A program made the translations under genes and the position numbers. Positions 30,899 through 40,941 of a stretch of 64,000 nt of DNA are shown here, piece by piece. Position 1 is the stretch's first letter. Each line of letters starts with the position of its first letter. The stretch covers positions 105,680 through 169,679 of the forward strand of contig CAIZWN010000068.1 in the NCBI GenBank assembly GCA_903936705.1, read 5' to 3'. The stretch is from an uncultured Myxococcales bacterium. GTDB taxonomy: Bacteria; Myxococcota_A; UBA9042; DTJE01. A model generated the notes under the pieces. That model saw only the letters and a list, made by a program, of their open reading frames with translations. It was not told the DNA's origin and did no database searches.

Positions 30899-33328
30899 AT
30901 GGGACTCATGGGATCCAGGTGTGCACCGGCATTGTGCGCGATTGCCGCGATTGTCCTGGCGTCGTCCGTTGCCGGCGCGGCGGAGTACCCCGATCTGTGT
31001 GTTGGTCCCGGCGCTCCGTCGGCATCGAGTTGCCCCGATGGACTGATATTCGAAGGTTGCTGCGACGCAAGGGGGCGGGTTGTCTGGTGCGAATCGGGCC
31101 TGCTGTACTGTTCGGACTGTGCGGGCCAGCCGTCCGCGGTTCGGGAATGCGGCTGGCTGTTGTACGACAATCGCGGTCGTCCGGCTGACTACTATGCCTG
31201 TGGAGGCAAGGGCGACGACCCGACGGGCGTCCATGTTCGGGAATGTTCCCTGCCGCCGCTGCCGGACGTCAATCCCGAGCCCGCGCCCGAATTGCAGCCC
31301 GAGCCGGCTCCTGACGTTTCGGAACCTTCCCCGGACGTGATCGGACCGATACCCGATGTTCCGGAACCGTTGCCAGAATTCGTCGAACCGGTGCCCGATG
31401 TCATCGAGGCTTCGTACGATGTCGCCGAGGTATCGTCTGACGTGGCCGAAGCATCGTCCGATGTCGCGGAGGCCTGGTCCGATGTGGCAGAGGCATCGTC
31501 CGACGTCGCCGATTCGAACCCCGAGATCGTCGAGCCGCACGCGGATGTCCCCACCCCACAGGATCCTGGGCCGGACGTGCCACCCGCCGACACCGACGAT
31601 GTGACGAACGGGGAGGCGTCCCCCGATGGCGCACTTCCGTCAGATTCGGGGGAGATCGATTTCCAGGAAACCGATGCAACCGATGAAACCTCCGATACCG
31701 ATACCGATGCCGTGCCCGACGAGACCCAGGATAGGGGGCGGTTGCAGGGAGGCATGACCTGTGCGGCCGGCGGCATCCGTGGCGCCCCCGACGTGTCCGG
31801 GCTGCTGGCGATTAGTGGCGGGCTTCTGTTGCTGATGCTGTGTCTGGGGTCGATGCGGTCCGGTGATCGAGGCGGTCGGGGTCGGCGGTTCAGGTTGCCC
31901 ATGGGAACGGCAGGCATTCTGCTGGTCCTGGTCGTCCTGGGAATCCTGTTCCTGCCGTCCCGAACGTGGGCCGAGGATCGCGTCGAGGACCTGTCGGGCC
32001 GGCGCTACAGCCTGCGATCTGGATCGCTGGGCATCCTGGGCACCGACACCGGCCGGACTTTGGCGTTTCTGCAATACGAGGCCGGATTGGTTCTGGGATA
32101 CGCATCCCGATCGATCGTCGAAACCAGGGACAAGAAGGTTGTTCGCACCTGGCTAGGGCCGCGGTTCGAAGGCGAACTGTGGGGTGCCGTCGGTGTGTTC
32201 CCGCGGATCGACATAGGGTTGTCATTGCCTATCACCTGGTGGCAGGACGGAACCCGGTCCGATGGTTCAAGGGCGTCCCGGACAGGCATCGGCGACCTGT
32301 CGATCGTCCCGCGTTTTACGCTGATGGACGAAGCGAAGGGCGCCGAGGCGACCCTGGGCCTGGTCGTCGAGATTGTCGCGCCCACGGGCCGACGTGGCAC
32401 CTATATGTCGCTGGGGACTTTTCAGACGGTCGGCAAGTTGGCGATGTCCAAAAGCCTGTCGGGCATCACGATGGGATTGGACCTCTGGTACCGCTGGGTC
32501 CTGAGGGCGGTAAATGCCTGGAACGTGAAGGACGCCGACCAGTTGGGCGCCTCGTTTGCCCTGCAGTACGAATTTCCCTGGCTGCCATTGCAGCTTGCGG
32601 CCGAGGTGAATCTGGCGGTCCCGTCGACGCGCCCGTTTTTCCGCAAGGAAGAAATCGCATCCGAGGCACTTGGGGGCGTGGCGTATCGCATCGGTCCCTG
32701 GCGGGTTCGCGTGGCTGGCGGTGGCGGTATCGCCCCGGGTTTCGGCGTGCCACGGGCGCGATTCCTGGCGTCCGTCGATTACACATCGCCCGTCCCGGTA
32801 AAGAAGAAGGTGGAAACACCTGCGACACCGCAGCCTGTGACGCAAGTCCAGCCCGAACCTGTGCCGGTGGCGGTCGAGCCTGCGGTGGTGAAGCCCGAGG
32901 TTACCGAGCCCACGCCTGAGGCACCCCCTGCCGCTCCCGAGCCTCCGGTTCCTGCGGCGCAGCCGGCTTTACCCAAAACCGAGTTGCCGGAGTCGGTCAA
33001 CCTCCTGTTCGGCGCCGGTGAATTCCGCGTCAGTGAACGGTATGCGGACGTCCTTGACCGCGTGGCACAGCAGGTTCGCCAGGACAACCGAATCGTTGGG
33101 GTCATGATCGAGGGGCACACGTCAATACCAGGATCCGCTGATCACAATCTGCGGCTGTCGGGGCGGCGGGCCGAGAGTGTGCGCCGCGCCCTTGTGGATC
33201 GTGGCGTGCCGGTGCGCAAGGTGCATACTCGCGGCCTGGGCGCGACAATGCCCGTGGCCTCAGGACTGACTCCCGAGGCGAATGCCCAGAACCGTCGGGT
33301 TCAAATCGTGTTCCAAGTCGGAGATTGA
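30899..33328 (+). CDS. OmpA-family protein: Cys-rich N-domain, acidic repeats, internal MYXO-CTERM-like segment, beta-barrel, OmpA C-domain
   Basis: Signal peptide; GGMTCAAG + TM + RR; amphipathic strands ending GFGVPRARFLASVDY; IEGHT, NLRLSGRRAESV, NRRVQI. Confidence 0.85.
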   Translation: MGLMGSRCAPALCAIAAIVLASSVAGAAEYPDLCVGPGAPSASSCPDGLIFEGCCDARGRVVWCESGLLYCSDCAGQPSAVRECGWLLYDNRGRPADYYACGGKGDDPTGVHVRECSLPPLPDVNPEPAPELQPEPAPDVSEPSPDVIGPIPDVPEPLPEFVEPVPDVIEASYDVAEVSSDVAEASSDVAEAWSDVAEASSDVADSNPEIVEPHADVPTPQDPGPDVPPADTDDVTNGEASPDGALPSDSGEIDFQETDATDETSDTDTDAVPDETQDRGRLQGGMTCAAGGIRGAPDVSGLLAISGGLLLLMLCLGSMRSGDRGGRGRRFRLPMGTAGILLVLVVLGILFLPSRTWAEDRVEDLSGRRYSLRSGSLGILGTDTGRTLAFLQYEAGLVLGYASRSIVETRDKKVVRTWLGPRFEGELWGAVGVFPRIDIGLSLPITWWQDGTRSDGSRASRTGIGDLSIVPRFTLMDEAKGAEATLGLVVEIVAPTGRRGTYMSLGTFQTVGKLAMSKSLSGITMGLDLWYRWVLRAVNAWNVKDADQLGASFALQYEFPWLPLQLAAEVNLAVPSTRPFFRKEEIASEALGGVAYRIGPWRVRVAGGGGIAPGFGVPRARFLASVDYTSPVPVKKKVETPATPQPVTQVQPEPVPVAVEPAVVKPEVTEPTPEAPPAAPEPPVPAAQPALPKTELPESVNLLFGAGEFRVSERYADVLDRVAQQVRQDNRIVGVMIEGHTSIPGSADHNLRLSGRRAESVRRALVDRGVPVRKVHTRGLGATMPVASGLTPEANAQNRRVQIVFQVGD
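31397..31513 (+). repeat. Degenerate 21-bp tandem repeat, about 5.5 copies (DVAEASS)
   Basis: DVIEASY/DVAEVSS/DVAEASS/DVAEAWS/DVAEASS/DVAD. Confidence 0.9.
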
Positions 33329-33404: not shown

Positions 33405-34673
33405 TCAGCAGAAACCCTTGAAGTAGTCCTCGTTCTGCATGACGGGCTGCATCCAGTCAGCGACACGTAGATCGGCAACTGTCGAACCGACCATGCCGAT
33501 ATCGTCCATCTCACCCAGTTCCAGGAACCGCGCCATCTGGAGTGCCTTGATGTCCGCGGCTGGGATGTTGATGATGGCCGCGACCGTAGTATCGATTGCA
33601 ACAAGGTCGTTCCCGGCCAGCGCGAAATACCGTCCCGCCGTGTTGCGGTTCTTCATGTGAATGGTACGGCCGTCGTTGACCGGCGCCATATGCGGGCCGC
33701 TGCCCTCCAGGCAGATGGAACCGTCGACGATTGCGAAGTCTTTGTAACCGTTGTCCTTGCGCCACTTCACCATGTCGATGAAGGACCCGGAAACCCCGGC
33801 GTCATCGATGCCGTGGCAGGCCATCTTGTCGTAGGCCACGTGCAATCCGCACCTGGAAATACCGTTGCCGTGCAGGTTGATCGAGGCGGCCCCAAAAAAG
33901 TTCTTCATGGAGGCGGACATGCGTGCCCACTGGTGCGTCTTGATTACCGGCATGGATATGATGTGGTCGGCCAGGGCAAAAGCCTTCCCGATCGAGATGC
34001 CGTCCTTGACCAGATCGCTGGTCGAGGCAGACGGGATGACCTGCCATTCGTTCGTGGCATTCAGGCAGATCAGTTCGACCCGCCCGGCACCGTAAACCGA
34101 CAGCAGACGGTCCACATCGGCCTTCAGGTTCGTTGCGCCTTCGATGGAATTGCCGTCGACGAAGGTCACGGTGTCCCACTCCCAGGACTCGGTCTGCGAA
34201 CCTTCGCCGATGATCACTTTCGCCGCTCCGGCTTTCAGGCACTGCTCGGCGACGCCAAGGACCAGTTCGGGCTTGGTGACTTCGCCGGTGTTGGGGTTGA
34301 AGCCAACGCCAAACGGCTCCATGCCGAGGGCTACAAAATTCGGCTTGATGAAGACAGTCTTGTTCGCCAGCGCCGTGCCGGTAAAGCCCAGGGCTTCCGC
34401 TGCCTGCATGCCCATGCCGTGGAGTTCCGTAAGGGAGGAACCCAGGACTGCGAACACGGTAGCGGCATGGACCACGGGTACGTCCGCCGGTACTTCAGCT
34501 GGGACGTCAACCAGGACATCAGCCGGGACGTCAGCCGGCACATCTGCCCCCGGAAGGTCCCCGCCGTCCTTAACCCCGGAGTCACACCCCAGGTTCAGCA
34601 GGGCAGGGGTCGCCAGGGCCGCTGCCATGCCCGCTACACCACGTTTCAGAAGATCGCGCCGACTGATGGACAT
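33405..34673 (-). CDS. DUF362-domain protein, Tat-exported lipoprotein
   Basis: MSISRRDLLK (Tat), LNLG-C lipobox, FIKPNF, IGEGS, MPVIKTH..SMKNFFG, VDG..LEGSGP, DLVAID; GGAGG RBS. Confidence 0.88.
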   Translation of the reverse strand: MSISRRDLLKRGVAGMAAALATPALLNLGCDSGVKDGGDLPGADVPADVPADVLVDVPAEVPADVPVVHAATVFAVLGSSLTELHGMGMQAAEALGFTGTALANKTVFIKPNFVALGMEPFGVGFNPNTGEVTKPELVLGVAEQCLKAGAAKVIIGEGSQTESWEWDTVTFVDGNSIEGATNLKADVDRLLSVYGAGRVELICLNATNEWQVIPSASTSDLVKDGISIGKAFALADHIISMPVIKTHQWARMSASMKNFFGAASINLHGNGISRCGLHVAYDKMACHGIDDAGVSGSFIDMVKWRKDNGYKDFAIVDGSICLEGSGPHMAPVNDGRTIHMKNRNTAGRYFALAGNDLVAIDTTVAAIINIPAADIKALQMARFLELGEMDDIGMVGSTVADLRVADWMQPVMQNEDYFKGFC

Positions 34674-34716
34674 CGTAATCGCCTCCGCATATGGAAAATC
34701 AGCATCAACCTCGATT

Positions 34717-35139
34717 TCAGGGCACGTGGCAGGACTTGCAGGAAAGGGGATCCGGGAAGCCTTCGCTGCTGTGCGGGGTGTGGCATCCCGAGCAGGGTGG
34801 GGTGCCGCTGTGGCCGGCAGGGGCCCCGTTCTTGCCGTGGCATCCGATGCAAAGGTACGGGTCCTTGCCGTCGTTATGGTCGTCGGCAGTGTGGCAGTCC
34901 CAGCATTTTGGGTTGCCCCAACCAGAGTGTGTGTTTTCAAGAATCAGTTTCGTCGCGCCAGTGACTGTATCGACGCCCAGTTCCCTGGCGACGTCCGGCG
35001 CAACGCCTGGATCGACGAGGGTGTCGTTGTCGGCGATGACATCCACGGGAGTCGTTTGATCGGTCCCGGTCGTGCTGGCAGAGTCGCAGCTCAACCCAAG
35101 GGTTACCACCAGCAACAGTGCCCACAGTGGTCGGCGCAT
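34717..35139 (-). CDS. Small tetraheme cytochrome c lipoprotein with an ApbE flavinylation motif
   Basis: Lipobox LGLS-C; DTVTGAT; CWDCH, CIGCH, CSGCH, CKSCH; AGGAGA RBS. Confidence 0.88.
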   Translation of the reverse strand: MRRPLWALLLVVTLGLSCDSASTTGTDQTTPVDVIADNDTLVDPGVAPDVARELGVDTVTGATKLILENTHSGWGNPKCWDCHTADDHNDGKDPYLCIGCHGKNGAPAGHSGTPPCSGCHTPHSSEGFPDPLSCKSCHVP

Positions 35140-35262: not shown

Positions 35263-36954
35263 ATGCGAAAGACACCAGATGGCTCCCTTGGAAATGTTTC
35301 AAAGTCCACCACCCGCCGCGGTTTCCTGCAGAAATCCGCCATTGGTGCCCTTGCGATCGTCGGGACGCGGGCGCTGGCCGGCTGCGATGGCGGGACGTCC
35401 GTGACCGGCGACCTGCCCGGCGACACGACGGGCGATACACCTGGCCAGATCACGTGGTCTTTCGATCGCGAGGCTGACGTCGTAGTCATCGGGTCCGGGA
35501 CGGGCCTGGTCGCCGCTCTGGTGGCCGCGGTGAAGGGCGCCAAGGTTCTTGTGCTGGAGAAGTCGGCTGCTACCGGCGGTTCGACGCGCCTGTCTGGTGG
35601 TGTTGCGTGGATCCCGAACAACCCGGTCATGAAGGAGGCCGGGATCGAGGACAATCGCGCCGATGCTTTGGCCTACGTGCGCAAGATGTCCAAGGGGCAA
35701 TCCGAGGACGCCCTCCTGGAAGCCTTTGTCGACAAGGGGCCGGAAATGGTGGCCTTTGTAGGGTCGCAGACGGACATCGGTTGGCAGGTCACTCCGCTGC
35801 TGGGCGACTATCACACCGATTGGCCAGGGGCACGCTTCTCTGGGCGCAGCATCGGCCCGACCGAGGGTGATGCTTTCAACCAGGGCCCGATCCTCATCGA
35901 CAGGCTGGAATCGGCGATGAAGGCTGCGGGAGGGGAAGTTCTGCTGAACGCACCTGCGAAAAAATTCATTACACGGACGACTCCGGCCGGAGGCCTCGAA
36001 ATCGTCGGCGTCGAGGCCGAGGTCGATGGGGCACGGATTCGCATCCGGGCGAACCAGGGCGTGGTGCTTGCGGCTGGCGGCCTCGACTGGGACTTCGAAC
36101 GGAAGCGTCATTTTCTGCGTGGGCCGACCGAGTACACACTCGGGCACCCAGGCAACACAGGCGACGGCCTGCGTATGGCCATGGCCGTTGGCGCGGACCT
36201 GCGTAACATGAACGAGTGTTGGGGTGGTGTCGTGTTTGCCGCTGAAACCGCCGCCGCCATGGCCGAGGGCAAACCAGCCAACATCAATGCCATGGCTCAC
36301 CGTCGCATGCCGGGGTGCATCACCGTGAACCGGTATGGCGAGCGTTTTTGCGACGAGGCCAGTCCCTACGACCCGGCCTGGTTGTCCTTCTTCCGCTGGG
36401 AGAACTGGGGTGACCTTCGGGACCGGAACCTGCCGGCGTTCTTCATTTCCGACAAGAAGATGCGACCCGACACGACTGTAGGCGTGCAGAAGGCGGATAC
36501 GTTGCGCGAACTGGCCGGCCTTTTAAGTATTGACCCGGATGGGCTGGAAGCCACGGTCGCGGCATTCAACCTGGCCGCATTGCAGGGCAAGGACCCGATC
36601 TATCATCGCGGCGAAAGCGCGTATGAAATGGGCTACGGCCCGACCCTGGCGCCGATCGAAAAGGCCCCCTTCTACGGTGTCGAGTGTGCTCCTGCGGATC
36701 TGGGTACCTGTGGCGGCGCTCGTGTCAACGTCAACGCCCAGGTTCTGGACACCGATGGCCTGGTGATCCAGCGTCTGTACGCGGCCGGGAACAGTTCTGG
36801 TGTCGGCGGACCAGGTGCCGGCTATGGTGGCGGTGGCGGTACCATAGGTCCCGCGATGACGTTCGCGTACATTGCCGGAGGCGTGGTTGCCGACCAGGAT
36901 CGCCTGGTTCTTGAGGGTGACGGCGCCAGCCCCGTGGACGGTGCCGCAGGCTAG
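35263..36954 (+). CDS. Tat-lipoprotein FAD-binding oxidoreductase (FAD_binding_2; KstD/flavocytochrome c flavin subunit family)
   Basis: TRRGFLQ, LAG-C, DVVVIGSG, GGSTRLSGGVAWIPNN, NTGDG, GERFCDE, DLGTCGG, LYAAGN, GGTIGPAMTF. Confidence 0.9.
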   Translation: MRKTPDGSLGNVSKSTTRRGFLQKSAIGALAIVGTRALAGCDGGTSVTGDLPGDTTGDTPGQITWSFDREADVVVIGSGTGLVAALVAAVKGAKVLVLEKSAATGGSTRLSGGVAWIPNNPVMKEAGIEDNRADALAYVRKMSKGQSEDALLEAFVDKGPEMVAFVGSQTDIGWQVTPLLGDYHTDWPGARFSGRSIGPTEGDAFNQGPILIDRLESAMKAAGGEVLLNAPAKKFITRTTPAGGLEIVGVEAEVDGARIRIRANQGVVLAAGGLDWDFERKRHFLRGPTEYTLGHPGNTGDGLRMAMAVGADLRNMNECWGGVVFAAETAAAMAEGKPANINAMAHRRMPGCITVNRYGERFCDEASPYDPAWLSFFRWENWGDLRDRNLPAFFISDKKMRPDTTVGVQKADTLRELAGLLSIDPDGLEATVAAFNLAALQGKDPIYHRGESAYEMGYGPTLAPIEKAPFYGVECAPADLGTCGGARVNVNAQVLDTDGLVIQRLYAAGNSSGVGGPGAGYGGGGGTIGPAMTFAYIAGGVVADQDRLVLEGDGASPVDGAAG

Positions 36955-38069
36955 GGCCCGGTCGACCTTTTGCCTTCCGATTCACGATGCAAATCAGGAC
37001 CGTGCGAATAAAGCTGGGCCATCCTTCGGGACACACGCTGGACCATCACGCCGTCTTCCCCGCGTAACAGCAGCAGCACGCCGGCTCCCGGCAGGGACTC
37101 GATCAGGGCAAGCCCCTCGTCCGGCGGCAGGACTGCCAGCGCGGTTGCCAAGGCGTCAGCCGTAGCATTGGGCCAGTCACCTCCCTCGATGACGACGGTC
37201 ACCCCCATAAGGCGGGTGTCGACGGGCTGGCCAGTACGCGGGTCGAAGATGTGATAGTAGTCCCGTCCCGCGATGCGCACCGGCTGTTCATAGTTCCCAG
37301 ACGTCGAAATCGCGATGCGCGTGGCGGCAGTCACGACCCCCAGCATGCCCGTCGCGGACCGCGGATCTCGCACCCCTACGCGCCACGGGAGCCTTTCGGG
37401 GGATGTCCCGAAGGCGCGGACCTCGCCGCCAACCTGGATCAGGCCCGACAGGGCGCCCCGCGACTCCAGGAGTTCGGCGGCCCGATCTACCGCGAAGCCC
37501 TTTACGATGCCTCCAAAGTCCAGCGATACCGGTGGATCCAGGGGTTGGATCGTTCCTTCTTGATCCTGGACCAGCCGCTGCATACCAACGCGGGCCAACG
37601 CCAAGGCCAGGTCGTCCGGAGGCGGCGGAACCCCGTCGCGGACCGCTCGCTTCCACAGTTCCTTCAACGGCCAGACTGTCACGTCGAAGGCCCCAGAGGT
37701 CCTGTTCCATGCCTCCCTGGACAATCGAATCAGCAGGGTCAAAAGAGGCGACGGAGCGAACGTTCGTCGTCCGTTCTCGCGGTTGAAAAGGCCGACCTCC
37801 GAGGTCGGGTCGAACGGGTTGCACGTGCTACCGGTGCGACGAATCTCGTTAAAAGCATCGTCCATCAAGGCTGCACCTTCGGCGGCGCGGTCCGGGGGCA
37901 TTGCGAAACGCAGGCGCGCCGGGATACCTACCCACAGATTTTCCGAGCGATCAGACCACGCCAATGCAGGGGCAGCGGGCTCTTGGACAAGCCTGTAGAC
38001 GATGAACAACAGTGCCAGTCCACAAAGAATTGCGACGACCAAAATGGCCACGCGCTTGCCTGATTGCAT
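36951..38069 (-). CDS. apbE: FAD:protein FMN transferase ApbE
   Basis: SEVGLFN, GAFDVTV, LDFGGIVKGFAVD, GGEV, WRVGVRDP, STSGNYE, HIFDPRTG, ADALATA; N-terminal TM. Confidence 0.93.
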   Translation of the reverse strand: MQSGKRVAILVVAILCGLALLFIVYRLVQEPAAPALAWSDRSENLWVGIPARLRFAMPPDRAAEGAALMDDAFNEIRRTGSTCNPFDPTSEVGLFNRENGRRTFAPSPLLTLLIRLSREAWNRTSGAFDVTVWPLKELWKRAVRDGVPPPPDDLALALARVGMQRLVQDQEGTIQPLDPPVSLDFGGIVKGFAVDRAAELLESRGALSGLIQVGGEVRAFGTSPERLPWRVGVRDPRSATGMLGVVTAATRIAISTSGNYEQPVRIAGRDYYHIFDPRTGQPVDTRLMGVTVVIEGGDWPNATADALATALAVLPPDEGLALIESLPGAGVLLLLRGEDGVMVQRVSRRMAQLYSHGPDLHRESEGKRSTGP

Positions 38070-38101
38070 CGGTACCTCGTTATCGCCCGGTGGGTTCCGG
38101 G

Positions 38102-38968
38102 CTACCTGCCTTCCTCCAGTTCCCGGTGCGTGACCGAAACGGCGTGGCCATCGGTTCGCAGGGCATCGGCAGCCGTCACGGCCAGCGCGACCGACCGGTG
38201 CTGGCCGCCGGTACAACCGAAGGCAATCGTCACGACAGGGCGTTCCTCGGCCTCGTGCATCGGCAGGGACGTGCGAAACAGGTCCAGGACCCGGTCCCTG
38301 AAGACGGCCCATTCGGGCTGTTGCTCCAGAAAATGTCGAACCTCCGGATCCCTTCCGGTCAGGGGGCGAAGTTCGTCAACGAAATACGGGTTGGGCAGGC
38401 CGCGACAGTCGATGACATAGTCAGCCTCTCGCGGGACACCGTTGCGGTACCCGAACGACATGACCACCACGCCCGTCCGGCGCGACCGCTGGGGGTCCCA
38501 CGCCTGCATCACGCGCGCCTTCAGTTGGTGCACGTTCAGGGACGTCGTGTCAATTATCCAGGCGGCCTGCTCCTTCAGCGGTTCCAGCAGTTGACGTTCA
38601 AGAGTCAGCGCCGCTGCCAGCGAGCCAGTCTCCGATTCCAGCGGGTGTCGCCTTCTGGTTGCCGAATACCGTCGCACCAGCGACTCGTCGGCGCAGTCCA
38701 GGAACAGGATTTCAACGAGGTGCCCCGTAGCCCTGACACCGGCCAGGGCTTCCGGGAAGGCATCAAGGAACAGGCGTTCCCTGACATCCACTCCCAGGGC
38801 CACCCTGCGGACCTGTCCATTCGCCTCGGCCAGTGCCAGAAACTTGTCCAGCATCACCAGCGGAAGGTTGTCGATGCAGAAGAAACCTAGATCTTCAAGG
38901 GCGCGGATTGCGGTGGATTTTCCCGATCCCGAAAGCCCAGTGACGATGACGACGTGGGAGGTGTTCAA
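38102..38968 (-). CDS. rapZ: RNase adapter RapZ
   Basis: VTGLSGSGKS, CIDNLP, TRRRHPL, SFGYRNG, GCTGGQHRSV; TTG start. Confidence 0.93.
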   Translation of the reverse strand: MNTSHVVIVTGLSGSGKSTAIRALEDLGFFCIDNLPLVMLDKFLALAEANGQVRRVALGVDVRERLFLDAFPEALAGVRATGHLVEILFLDCADESLVRRYSATRRRHPLESETGSLAAALTLERQLLEPLKEQAAWIIDTTSLNVHQLKARVMQAWDPQRSRRTGVVVMSFGYRNGVPREADYVIDCRGLPNPYFVDELRPLTGRDPEVRHFLEQQPEWAVFRDRVLDLFRTSLPMHEAEERPVVTIAFGCTGGQHRSVALAVTAADALRTDGHAVSVTHRELEEGR

Positions 38969-38990
38969 CGTGCCTCGCTTCAGGCCGAGA

Positions 38991-39296
38991 TCAGGCCCTT
39001 CCGGTCCGGCGATCGTGAACCATGTCCTTCCGTTTTTGCAACTGGCGTTCCAGTTTGTCCAGTACGACATCGATCGTCGGATACAGGTCCGTGGTCTTCT
39101 CGGTGCTCTTGAATACCTCGCCCTTGGTTGTTACGACGACTTCCATGACCGTCCATGCCTTCTCGGTCGTAAGTGTAACCCTTGCATCGGAGGTGGGGCC
39201 CGCCAGTTTCTCGAACCTCTTCTCGATCTTGTCCAGGATCAGTGCCTTCAGATCATCGGAGGCATCGAACTGGCGAAGAACGAAACTTACCTGCAT
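38991..39296 (-). CDS. hpf: Ribosome hibernation promoting factor (short HPF/RaiA)
   Basis: DLYPTIDVVLDKLERQLQKRK; directly downstream of rpoN. Confidence 0.88.
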   Translation of the reverse strand: MQVSFVLRQFDASDDLKALILDKIEKRFEKLAGPTSDARVTLTTEKAWTVMEVVVTTKGEVFKSTEKTTDLYPTIDVVLDKLERQLQKRKDMVHDRRTGRA

Positions 39297-39441
39297 GACG
39301 GACTCCTTGCATGTCGGTCCGGCGTCCAACAACGCGGCCGGCCGACTCCAGCCCCGAGGATGCCGGGGCTAACCTTTGGGGAACACGCCTGCATCCGGAT
39401 GGTCGCAGGCGGCCCGCGGGGCGTTACGTACCCGCCCCGAA

Positions 39442-40941
39442 CTACACCAACTCACGGCGCCGCGACGATGGCAGGACACCGAGGACATCCCGGTATTTGG
39501 CCACCGTCCGACGCGCAATCACGATATTTTCACGACGCAACTTTTCGACGATTTCCTGGTCCGACAACGGGTTGGTCGAGTCTTCTGCCTCGATCAGCGC
39601 CTGGATGCGCGACTTCACGCTGGCCGAGGATTGGTCCTCTCCGTGAACGCTTCCGATGCGGCTGTTGAAGAAGTACTTCAGTTCGAAGATGCCGCGTGGG
39701 GTATGGACGTACTTGCTGGTCGTTACGCGGCTGATGGTGGACTCGTGCATGCCCACGTCCTCGGCCACGTCCCTGAGTACCAGCGGACGCAGGTGCGTCA
39801 CGCCGTTGTCCAGGAAGTCCCTCTGGAATCGCATGATGCTGTCGGTGACTTTCCTTATTGTGCCCTGGCGCTGATGTATCGAACGGATCAGCCACATTGC
39901 CGCGCGCAGTTTTTCCTGGACAAACTCACGCGCATCGCTGCGCGCTCCGCCGCCCAGCGCTGCTTCGTAATATGGGCTGATCTTCAGCTTGGGCAGGCCG
40001 TCCTCGTTCAGGACGGTGATGTAGTCGTTACCCACCTTGTACACGTACACGTCGGGTTGGACGTAGACGACCTCGTCGGTCGCGAACGCTCGCCCTGGAC
40101 GTGGATCCATGCCGACAACCGTATCGACCAGGATCTTGACCTCGTCCAGTGTGCACTTCAAACCGCGCGCGATGGCCTTGAAGTTCTTGCGCTCGAGATC
40201 TGACAGGTGGTTTTCCAGCAGCAGCCGCAGTCGCTCGTTGTCGGGGTGGTGATGTCGCGCCTGGATCAGCAGGCAGTCCCTCAGGTCACGAGCGGCAACG
40301 CCCACCGGGTCAAACGACTGGACTCGCAGCAGGATCGTCCTGACAAATGCCTCGTCGGAACTGGTTCTGGCCGCAATCTCGGCCTCGTCTACGTCCTGAA
40401 GATAACCGTCCTCGTTCAGGTTGCCGATGATGAACGCCCCGACCTCACGGCCCATGTCGTCGAGGTCGGAAAGCTGAAGCTGCCACAGGAGGTGGTCGCT
40501 GAGGCTGCTCTTGCGACTGATGGTCGACTCGATGGAAGGGTAGTCATCGTTCGATATCCGCAACTCCGGTCCGGACGAGAAGCGGTTATAGCCCTCGACG
40601 AACCTTTCCCAATCGATGCCCTCGTCCGGGTGCGTCGGCGATTCGTGGGGGCCGTCATTGCCCGATTCAAGAGGGTCCGCGACGGCCTTGGGCGGCGCTT
40701 CAGCGGGTGCCGGCTCGCCGACGTCCCCGCCTTCCCGGGCGGTGTCCTGGTAGGAAAGGTTGTCCTCGCCCGAGCCGTCCTCTTCCAGGACGGGGTTCGA
40801 GTCGAGCTGCGTGCGGATCTCTTCGGCCAGCTCCAGCCGGGACAACTGCAACAACCGGATGGCCAGTTGGAGTTGGGGAGTCAGGACCAGCTTCTGCAAG
40901 AGCTTTAGACTCTGCTCCTGCCGAATTTCCATCGCTGCCAT
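39442..40941 (-). CDS. rpoN: RNA polymerase sigma-54 factor
   Basis: LTPQLQLAIRLLQL, HESTISRV, ELKYFF, RpoN box ARRTVAKYR. Confidence 0.97.
   Translation of the reverse strand: MAAMEIRQEQSLKLLQKLVLTPQLQLAIRLLQLSRLELAEEIRTQLDSNPVLEEDGSGEDNLSYQDTAREGGDVGEPAPAEAPPKAVADPLESGNDGPHESPTHPDEGIDWERFVEGYNRFSSGPELRISNDDYPSIESTISRKSSLSDHLLWQLQLSDLDDMGREVGAFIIGNLNEDGYLQDVDEAEIAARTSSDEAFVRTILLRVQSFDPVGVAARDLRDCLLIQARHHHPDNERLRLLLENHLSDLERKNFKAIARGLKCTLDEVKILVDTVVGMDPRPGRAFATDEVVYVQPDVYVYKVGNDYITVLNEDGLPKLKISPYYEAALGGGARSDAREFVQEKLRAAMWLIRSIHQRQGTIRKVTDSIMRFQRDFLDNGVTHLRPLVLRDVAEDVGMHESTISRVTTSKYVHTPRGIFELKYFFNSRIGSVHGEDQSSASVKSRIQALIEAEDSTNPLSDQEIVEKLRRENIVIARRTVAKYRDVLGVLPSSRRRELV

Follow-up and report, generated by a model that had tools for sequence, protein, structure and literature searches.

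A 64,000-nucleotide stretch of DNA from an uncultured Myxococcales bacterium (GenBank assembly GCA_903936705.1, contig CAIZWN010000068.1, positions 105,680 to 169,679 of the forward strand; “the window”) encodes a small tetraheme cytochrome c that carries, between an acidic tether and its first heme motif, a complete sequon for ApbE, the FAD:protein FMN transferase (FAD, flavin adenine dinucleotide; FMN, flavin mononucleotide). From sequence comparisons and a predicted structure, we favor with a probability of roughly 0.6 the reading that the sequon is a natural, domain-less ApbE “flavin tag” giving an FMN-plus-four-heme carrier. FMN and four hemes held without a flavin-binding domain would be an undescribed kind of electron carrier and a new class of ApbE substrate. 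The sequon is complete and under selection, it is placed at the edge of the fold, no known flavinylated domain accompanies it, the gene belongs to a conserved trio, and ApbE is encoded in the same genome. The features of the cytochrome gene are as follows.

34717..35139, minus strand: tetraheme cytochrome c gene (P0002), 140 amino acids (aa), stop codon included, from the open reading frame (ORF), its translation and homologues
35086..35139, minus strand: predicted lipoprotein-type signal peptide ending at Cys18, MRRPLWALLLVVTLGLSC, then DS (Asp at +2)
34978..35085, minus strand: acidic tether rich in Pro, Gly and Ala, residues 19-54, varying in sequence and length; predicted local distance difference test (pLDDT) 54-66 in an AlphaFold2 (AF2) model
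34951..34971, minus strand: ApbE-type flavinylation sequon D57-T-V-T-G-A-T63, with Thr63 as predicted FMN acceptor
34927..34929, minus strand: His71, a histidine outside the CXXCH motifs, invariant in 86 sequences, 8 residues past Thr63
34891..34905, minus strand: heme motif 1, CWDCH, residues 79-83, from sequence
34837..34851, minus strand: heme motif 2, CIGCH, residues 97-101, from sequence
34780..34794, minus strand: heme motif 3, CSGCH, residues 116-120, from sequence
34726..34740, minus strand: heme motif 4, CKSCH, residues 134-138, from sequence

Residues are counted from the Met of MRRPLW; without its stop codon the ORF spans 34720-35139 (minus strand). The Cys18 that ends the predicted lipoprotein signal is invariant in the close family (17 sequences) and at least 90% conserved among 86 wider relatives. 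The 38-residue stretch Cys18-Asp57 that follows has a net charge of -7 and is rich in Asp, Pro, Gly, Ala, Ser and Thr. The sequon is encoded on the minus strand by GAT ACA GTC ACT GGC GCG ACG, and its five constrained positions all agree with D-x-x-[S/T]-G-A-[S/T] as defined in PMC12052999. According to the same source seven residues are enough for ApbE (the flavin-tag, which works best at a terminus), and among sequon mutants Thr to Ala abolishes flavinylation, Gly to Ala leaves ∼50% and Asp to Ala has a minor effect. Directly after the sequon comes K-L-I-L-E-N-T-H71-S-G-W, and 15 residues separate the sequon from the first heme Cys. CXXCH motifs begin at residues 79, 97, 116 and 134. An initial annotation, made by a model that was shown only the letters and a list of ORFs, had described a bare canonical flavinylation motif and a tetraheme cytochrome here, and both descriptions hold.

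Thr60 or Thr63 might instead be the site of some other periplasmic modification or recognition event, such as O-glycosylation or a sorting signal. Thr-rich segments beside tethers are commonly targeted in this way, which is an indirect argument, and the match to the ApbE motif is complete; we therefore give this explanation very little weight. We know of no other system that reads D-x-x-T-G-A-T.

In the alignment of 86 sequences, conservation reaches at least 90% for His88, His110 and His123, which together with His71 make four extra histidines for four hemes. From this pattern of one extra His per heme we infer bis-His ligation, with His71 as a probable distal ligand. The signal peptide and the c-type heme motifs would place the protein in the periplasm, a topology read from sequence alone. 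Class III (c3/c7-type) cytochromes pack several CXXCH motifs into a short chain and have an additional His for each heme, as is seen here. The whole protein matched only such families in Pfam at E≤0.1, all with scores below threshold (PF14537, 19.3 bits, cut-off 25; PF14522, 18.5 bits, cut-off 24.8; PF02085, 17.3 bits, cut-off 22.9), the ESM Atlas gave c3/c7-type leads only, with scores of at most 0.86, and a PDB sequence search with the cytochrome returned nothing meaningful (best E-value 0.037, across 24 residues). In some relatives (L006, L015/L058, P0010 and P0019) heme motif 1 has the form CX4CH (CWNSGCH or CWGDGCH).

A lone match to the sequon is not significant. In six-frame ORFs of at least 100 aa from the genome (5.11 million residues), the expression D..[ST]GA[ST] was matched 25 times versus ∼41 expected from composition (∼8e-6 per residue, ∼0.001 per 140-aa protein); one of these matches is antisense to a real gene. 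Since a single match proves nothing, the case rests on conservation, and it is conservation together with a fixed position in distant relatives that lifts the sequon above chance. The initial annotation had proposed an alignment of homologous cytochromes as a check, and the sequon passed it. A word-index search yielded 16 homologues at 48-94% identity, 17 sequences with the query, and D[TA][VIT][TS]GAT[KR] is kept in 17/17, with variation at the two x positions. The linker ahead of the sequon differs among them in both sequence and length. The majority residue has a mean frequency of 0.43 across linker residues 19-54, compared with 0.88 over residues 55-64 and 0.81 in the core. Six loci (window, L001, L002, L005, L006 and L058) were compared codon by codon: in 75 codon pairs at the five fixed positions (D, T, G, A, T) there are 27 synonymous pairwise differences and 0 non-synonymous ones. 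By this comparison the sequon is under purifying selection at the protein level. Note that in L005 (P0008) a partial copy of the site, LDTVTGND, stands 16 residues ahead of the genuine site, VDTVTGAT, as though a short piece of the linker had been duplicated. A second sequon-like match in the window (∼59,935, plus strand) was discarded because its ORF is antisense to a real 899-aa gene.

The position of the sequon relative to the fold was taken from an AF2 model built on the 86-sequence alignment (mean pLDDT 79.5; no cofactors in the model), which superseded an uninformative run with the 17-sequence alignment (mean pLDDT 43.7). In successive ten-residue blocks the pLDDT is 68, 66, 63, 63, 54, 57, 80, 95, 94, 94, 96, 95, 93 and 95; that is, 57 for residues 51-60, 80 for residues 61-70 and 93-96 for residues 71-140. 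Isolated beta-bridge residues are modeled at 56 and 63. In this model the confident fold starts at about residue 61-66, and Thr63 is at its N-terminal edge rather than in the middle of a floppy linker. The initial annotation had put the sequon in the linker; it does follow the acidic tether and precede heme 1, but it lies at the edge of the fold, 8 residues before His71.

The same annotation saw no room for a folded FMN_bind domain, and this was borne out. FMN_bind gave no match in the whole cytochrome at E≤0.1 or in residues 19-78 alone at E≤10, and none of the described flavinylated domains (FMN_bind 1/2, NqrB/RnfD, DUF2271, DUF3570, Flavodoxin_4, FMN_red) was found in residues 19-78 at E≤10. 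Sixty residues separate Cys18 from the first heme Cys; they are mostly low-complexity, and residues 19-60 are modeled by AF2 with low confidence. The FMN_bind profile (PF04205) has roughly 77 positions, and the structural core of FMN-bind1 is given as ∼120 aa in PMC11334425. A Foldseek search of the PDB with the 86-sequence AF2 model gave 0 matches, and VIA-align against 48,161 chains gave 0 with Z≥2. Because the fold is small and heme-shaped, these blanks show neither novelty nor kinship.

More distant relatives were collected with a HMMER search of 1.84 billion cluster representatives (E≤0.001), which returned 119 matches, clustered at 50% identity. The canonical sequon stands 20-26 residues ahead of heme 1 in 8/119 of these representatives (P0006, P0018, P0019, P0020, P0024, P0097, P0103 and P0120). 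Representatives and proteins from genome loci were pooled into 163 sequences, in which some proteins occur twice, and 146 of these bear the signature H..[WF]...CXXCH. Among the 146, the canonical sequon is present in 25 (∼0.03 expected from composition, as estimated from the genome regex frequency), 28 show [ST][GSA]A[ST] with a constant spacing of 12 residues, and the other 93 have neither. The acceptor of canonical sequences precedes the His by 8 residues in the clade of the window (9 in P0010) and by 10-12 elsewhere. After deduplication the canonical logo is V-D-[TA]-[VI]-T-G-A-T-K-L-[IM] (n = 24), and that of the second group is V-D(17/26)-A-[VI]-T-S(23/26)-A-T-P(26/26)-G-V (n = 26). Many second-group proteins are fused to an Amino_oxidase/CrtI-like flavoprotein.

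These data bear on the main rival explanation, namely that V-D-x-x-T-G-A-T-K is an unmodified structural or docking element of the N-terminal cap, which might form a short hairpin over heme 1 or touch a partner flavoenzyme, and that its likeness to the sequon is coincidental. The segment abuts the fold, as the pLDDT of residues 61-70 and the beta-bridge residues at 56 and 63 indicate, and non-Gly versions stand at the same place (T-S-A-T-P in 23/26 and T-H-A-T-P in L016/L007). Orthologous modules without the motif exist, and a conserved link to apbE is absent. Against it, 24 distinct sequences agree at exactly the five positions read by ApbE and differ at the two x positions, 93/146 family members fold without the segment, and the flanking pattern (hydrophobic-D-A/T-hydrophobic) matches the FMN_bind site VDAMTGAT of the genome's own NosR-like protein. 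We regard a purely structural role as rather unlikely on this balance.

A tree of the core, with the motif excluded, was made with IQ-TREE from 69/131 rows (every motif-bearer plus 24 selected rows without the motif, over 82 columns), and a FastTree overview was made from all 131 rows. Note that many forks of the IQ-TREE tree are unresolved and that it has only a midpoint root, so the direction of change is not proven. One clade (support 95/89) contains 20 canonical and 6 motif-less rows, and the motif-less rows form a single nested group (97/86) within a subclade that includes four canonical rows (97/84). Canonical P0097 joins the clade with Ser in place of Gly (85/79, moderate), and P0103 lies beside it at an unresolved fork. 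The placement of P0097 argues that Gly-type and Ser-type sites are equivalent, and the tree as a whole is consistent with a single site that alternates between Gly and Ser and was secondarily lost in one sub-lineage.

Loss in one nested lineage that retains the gene trio is also what would be expected if the sequon were a functionless relic, left over from an FMN_bind domain since lost or from a flavinylated ancestor, and the degenerate VEAETHATP of that lineage resembles a decayed site. Such a relic is highly improbable: 0 non-synonymous versus 27 synonymous differences at the fixed codons, beside a drifting linker, indicate purifying selection at present, and residues 19-78 hold no FMN_bind trace at E≤10.

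The cytochrome gene lies between two genes that complete the trio, with apbE beyond them.

33405..34676, minus strand: DUF362 protein; twin-arginine signal SRRDLLK, with Cys and a Pro-rich acidic tether behind it; PF04015, 1.2e-21
35263..36954, plus strand: KstD-like FAD_binding_2 flavoenzyme, 563 aa, with twin-arginine TRRGFLQK and lipobox-like LAGC; PF00890, 2.8e-58
36951..38072, minus strand: ApbE FAD:protein FMN transferase with an N-terminal hydrophobic anchor; PF02424, 7.5e-67

The DUF362 gene follows the cytochrome gene on its strand after 43 bp, and the flavoenzyme gene is divergent from the cytochrome gene. Neither a cytochrome nor an FMN_bind domain is part of the flavoenzyme itself. 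Its best PDB match is 7p18, a 3-oxosteroid 1-dehydrogenase (1.6e-57), and NCBIfam KstD-type models were all far below cut-off; by sequence it is closest to the 3-ketosteroid delta-1-dehydrogenases. The DUF362 protein has no PDB relative by sequence, and DUF362 belongs to the same Pfam clan as the N-terminal domain of LarA (PMC11770544). In all three proteins a signal (twin-arginine in two) is followed by Cys, Asp and an acidic Pro-rich tether. The twin-arginine motif and LAGC of the flavoenzyme suggest lipoproteins exported by the twin-arginine translocation (Tat) pathway, and the three proteins are probably co-anchored on one membrane. In E. coli an Asp at +2 causes retention in the inner membrane, which may not hold in this phylum.

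The trio (FAD_binding_2, cytochrome, DUF362) recurs at 8 distinct loci: the window, G119 (L001/L056), G074 (L002/L057), L005, L006, G354 (L058), L007 and G016 (L059). Six-frame ORFs across 14-20 kb at four motif-type loci contain no match to D..[ST][GSA]A[ST] other than the cytochrome site. In L007 and L059 no match to this expression was found in a six-frame scan of 16-20 kb. A comparison of the FAD_binding_2 proteins of five motif-type and two motif-less loci revealed no type-specific insertion in the mature enzyme that would mark a flavin-docking site.

The apbE gene is the only copy found in the genome, which is 96% complete (P0136 is 100% identical to it), and its end is 2 kb from the sequon. 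The initial annotation had taken this distance as support, an argument that carries little weight. In fetched flanks of the other trio loci ApbE was found at 0/7; none was found in L001-L011 except the window's own, and it was near family members in 0/18 regions of up to 20 kb from 13 other genomes. The ApbE orthologues of four relatives lie elsewhere, with neither rapZ nor the flavoenzyme within 1.5 kb. ApbE occurs in 334/401 genomes of the phylum, including G016, which has a motif-less cytochrome. It is present in every checked genome with a motif-bearing cytochrome, and G092 and G385, which are motif-less, are not among the ApbE matches. An exported cytochrome and an anchored ApbE are both encoded in the genome and predicted, from sequence topology, for the same compartment. 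Cytochrome c assembly genes are present as well. In the window apbE is directly downstream of rpoN, hpf (Ribosomal_S30AE) and rapZ (36951-40941, minus strand).

Other candidate clients of ApbE were sought across the genome. One FMN_bind domain was found, in a 1235-aa NosR/NapH-like membrane protein (L061) whose site is VDAMTGAT; this protein might exchange electrons with periplasmic carriers at the membrane, as donor or acceptor. NqrB/RnfD and DUF2271 were not found in the genome. DUF3570 gave no match either, but its control likewise matched nowhere, so that result is uninformative. In L061 (G000:C22:15946-19653) an N-terminal polytopic region weakly similar to polyamine aminopropyltransferase is joined to the FMN_bind domain and to a NapH/NosR-like Fer4_5 membrane part. 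A second candidate client in the genome is L060 (G000:C84:23581-24099), a 172-aa predicted lipoprotein that ends in ...HGVDAMTGATMMNREAE, with a full ApbE sequon near its C-terminus and no Pfam or NCBIfam match.

If the sequon is a flavin tag, the carrier would be assembled and used as follows. After Sec export, cleavage and lipidation at Cys18 would leave the protein on an acidic tether of ∼36 residues. The cytochrome c maturation system would attach four hemes at the CXXCH motifs, with His71, His88, His110 and His123 as distal ligands. Membrane-anchored periplasmic ApbE would transfer FMN from FAD to the hydroxyl of Thr63, forming a phosphoester. Nothing but this bond and the surface of the heme domain would then hold the FMN, which would lie close to the heme ligated by His71, 8 residues away in the chain, and would serve as a fifth redox center that couples the one-electron hemes to the two-electron FAD of the KstD-like flavoenzyme. 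That enzyme, co-encoded, co-anchored and Tat-exported, would work with the DUF362 protein. Electrons may pass from substrate to FAD, to FMN and hemes, and on to the respiratory chain, or the reverse; because of the likeness to KstD, the dehydrogenase mode is favored.

Several observations weigh against this reading. Gene linkage to apbE is the “guilt by association” route by which DUF2271 and DUF3570 were found, and for the cytochrome this linkage is seen in the window, and hence in this genome, only. Co-occurrence across genomes has no discriminating power, because ApbE is found in 334/401 of them and the informative genomes are few and related. Two of the 8 trio loci (L007 and L059) have a sequon-less cytochrome, with VEAETHATP at the place of the sequon and a different gene order. 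Since this motif-less trio is nested among motif-bearers, the module works without the site and the flavin is not indispensable. The VEAETHATP segment also fits a structural sequon look-alike, and the Ser at the Gly position of the sister clade departs from the published motif. No flavin pocket could be identified in the cofactor-free AF2 model, and the searches by sequence and by fold gave no solved relative. The FMN adduct on Thr63 is itself a prediction. Finally, FccA-type enzymes move electrons from heme to FAD without FMN (PMC8238504), so the need for FMN is not evident. The initial proposal of a minimal heme-FMN hybrid carrier is partly supported: the conserved sequon and the absence of FMN_bind stand, and the persistence of the trio without the motif in L007 and L059 tells against it. 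The tag remains our preferred reading at the strength given at the outset.

Several known systems are comparable, as far as the sources describe them. A full-text literature search for flavinylated cytochromes gave nothing beyond PMC12052999, PMC8238504 and PMC11334425. ApbE substrates are listed in PMC8238504 as FMN_bind, DUF2271 and DUF3570, with less prevalent ones said to remain unidentified, and PMC11334425 adds Flavodoxin_4 and FMN_red as flavinylated classes. Flavinylation of FMN_red on an unstructured extension was verified experimentally and needs Ser/Thr (PMC11334425). Like the FMN_red proteins (Huang et al. 2024, mSystems, PMC11334425), the cytochrome is extracytosolic by prediction and has its sequon on an extension beside a redox domain and not within a compact flavinylated one; unlike them, it has its extension at the N-terminus and no known flavin site, whereas FMN_red has a prior non-covalent flavin pocket and a C-terminal extension. 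The engineered flavin-tag (Tong et al. 2021, via PMC12052999) resembles it in that a bare seven-residue sequon on an unrelated protein suffices. That tag is artificial, whereas the cytochrome case would be natural, selected and endowed with a redox role.

Fumarate-reductase-like enzymes receive electrons through either a cytochrome or an FMN_bind domain, and the two are interchangeable (PMC8238504). In FccA, UrdA and Listeria FrdA (Meheust et al. 2021, PMC8238504), as would be the case here, a tetraheme module or ApbE-attached FMN serves a periplasmic FAD_binding_2 enzyme: Shewanella FccA is a tetraheme domain with FAD_binding_2, and UrdA and Listeria FrdA are FMN_bind with FAD_binding_2. Unlike in those enzymes, both inputs would be carried by a single small lipoprotein that is separate from the enzyme and lacks an FMN_bind fold, and the flavoenzyme is KstD-like rather than a fumarate or urocanate reductase. 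The FccA layout itself is not reproduced, for the cytochrome and FAD_binding_2 are encoded by separate, divergently transcribed genes. Longer fused forms of the cytochrome were not found by word-index search, which is weak evidence, and its distant relatives are fused to Amino_oxidase rather than to FAD_binding_2. The multi-flavinylated RnfG of Christensenellales with a multiheme domain (PMC8238504) is likewise predicted to join covalent FMN and c-type hemes on one polypeptide. Those RnfG proteins, however, have complete FMN_bind domains and belong to Rnf, and the present genome yielded no NqrB/RnfD.

Flavinylation by ApbE and multiheme cytochromes are regarded as alternative and interchangeable ways to move electrons outside the cytoplasm (PMC8238504). 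If the tag reading is correct, both solutions are united on ∼80 folded residues, in a natural counterpart of the engineered flavin-tag, and no dedicated domain is needed to match a one-electron heme chain to the two-electron chemistry of a flavin. This would help explain genomes that, like the present one, have ApbE but few recognizable clients. The cytochrome is probably one face of a larger unannotated family. A broader proposal, which we advance tentatively and with distinctly less confidence, is that a whole family of c-type cytochrome modules uses ApbE-attached FMN as an additional redox center without a flavin-binding domain; 53/146 sampled members fit it, as stand-alone D-x-x-T-G-A-T lipoproteins or periplasmic V-D-A-[VI]-T-S-A-T-P CrtI-like flavocytochromes. 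Were this so, ApbE substrates would exceed the six described domain classes, the natural sequon would tolerate Ser at the “Gly” position, and the surface of a heme domain could seat a flavin as a built-in two-/one-electron adaptor between flavoenzymes and heme wires. These observations point to a wider set of unannotated periplasmic flavocytochromes, with KstD-like and CrtI-like partners, in uncultured Myxococcota-type bacteria.

The CrtI-like flavocytochromes (L026-L034, L039, L041; P0084, P0087, P0112, P0124, P0126) are periplasmic by prediction, ∼610-710 aa long, and consist of a tetraheme module and an Amino_oxidase/CrtI-like domain whose best PDB match is 4rep, gamma-carotene desaturase. 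Their V-D-A-[VI]-T-S-A-T-P segment stands exactly 12 residues ahead of the conserved His, and their public names are generic (“NAD(P)/FAD-dependent oxidoreductase”). P0103, at 1238 aa, has the canonical sequon DDVSGAS, a tetraheme module, Amino_oxidase, seven further CXXCH motifs and a lamin-tail domain. Beside the trio in the window, and not kept there in relatives, is the gene for an 809-aa protein (30899-33328) with long acidic repeats, a Phenol_MetA_deg-like beta-barrel segment and a C-terminal OmpA domain.

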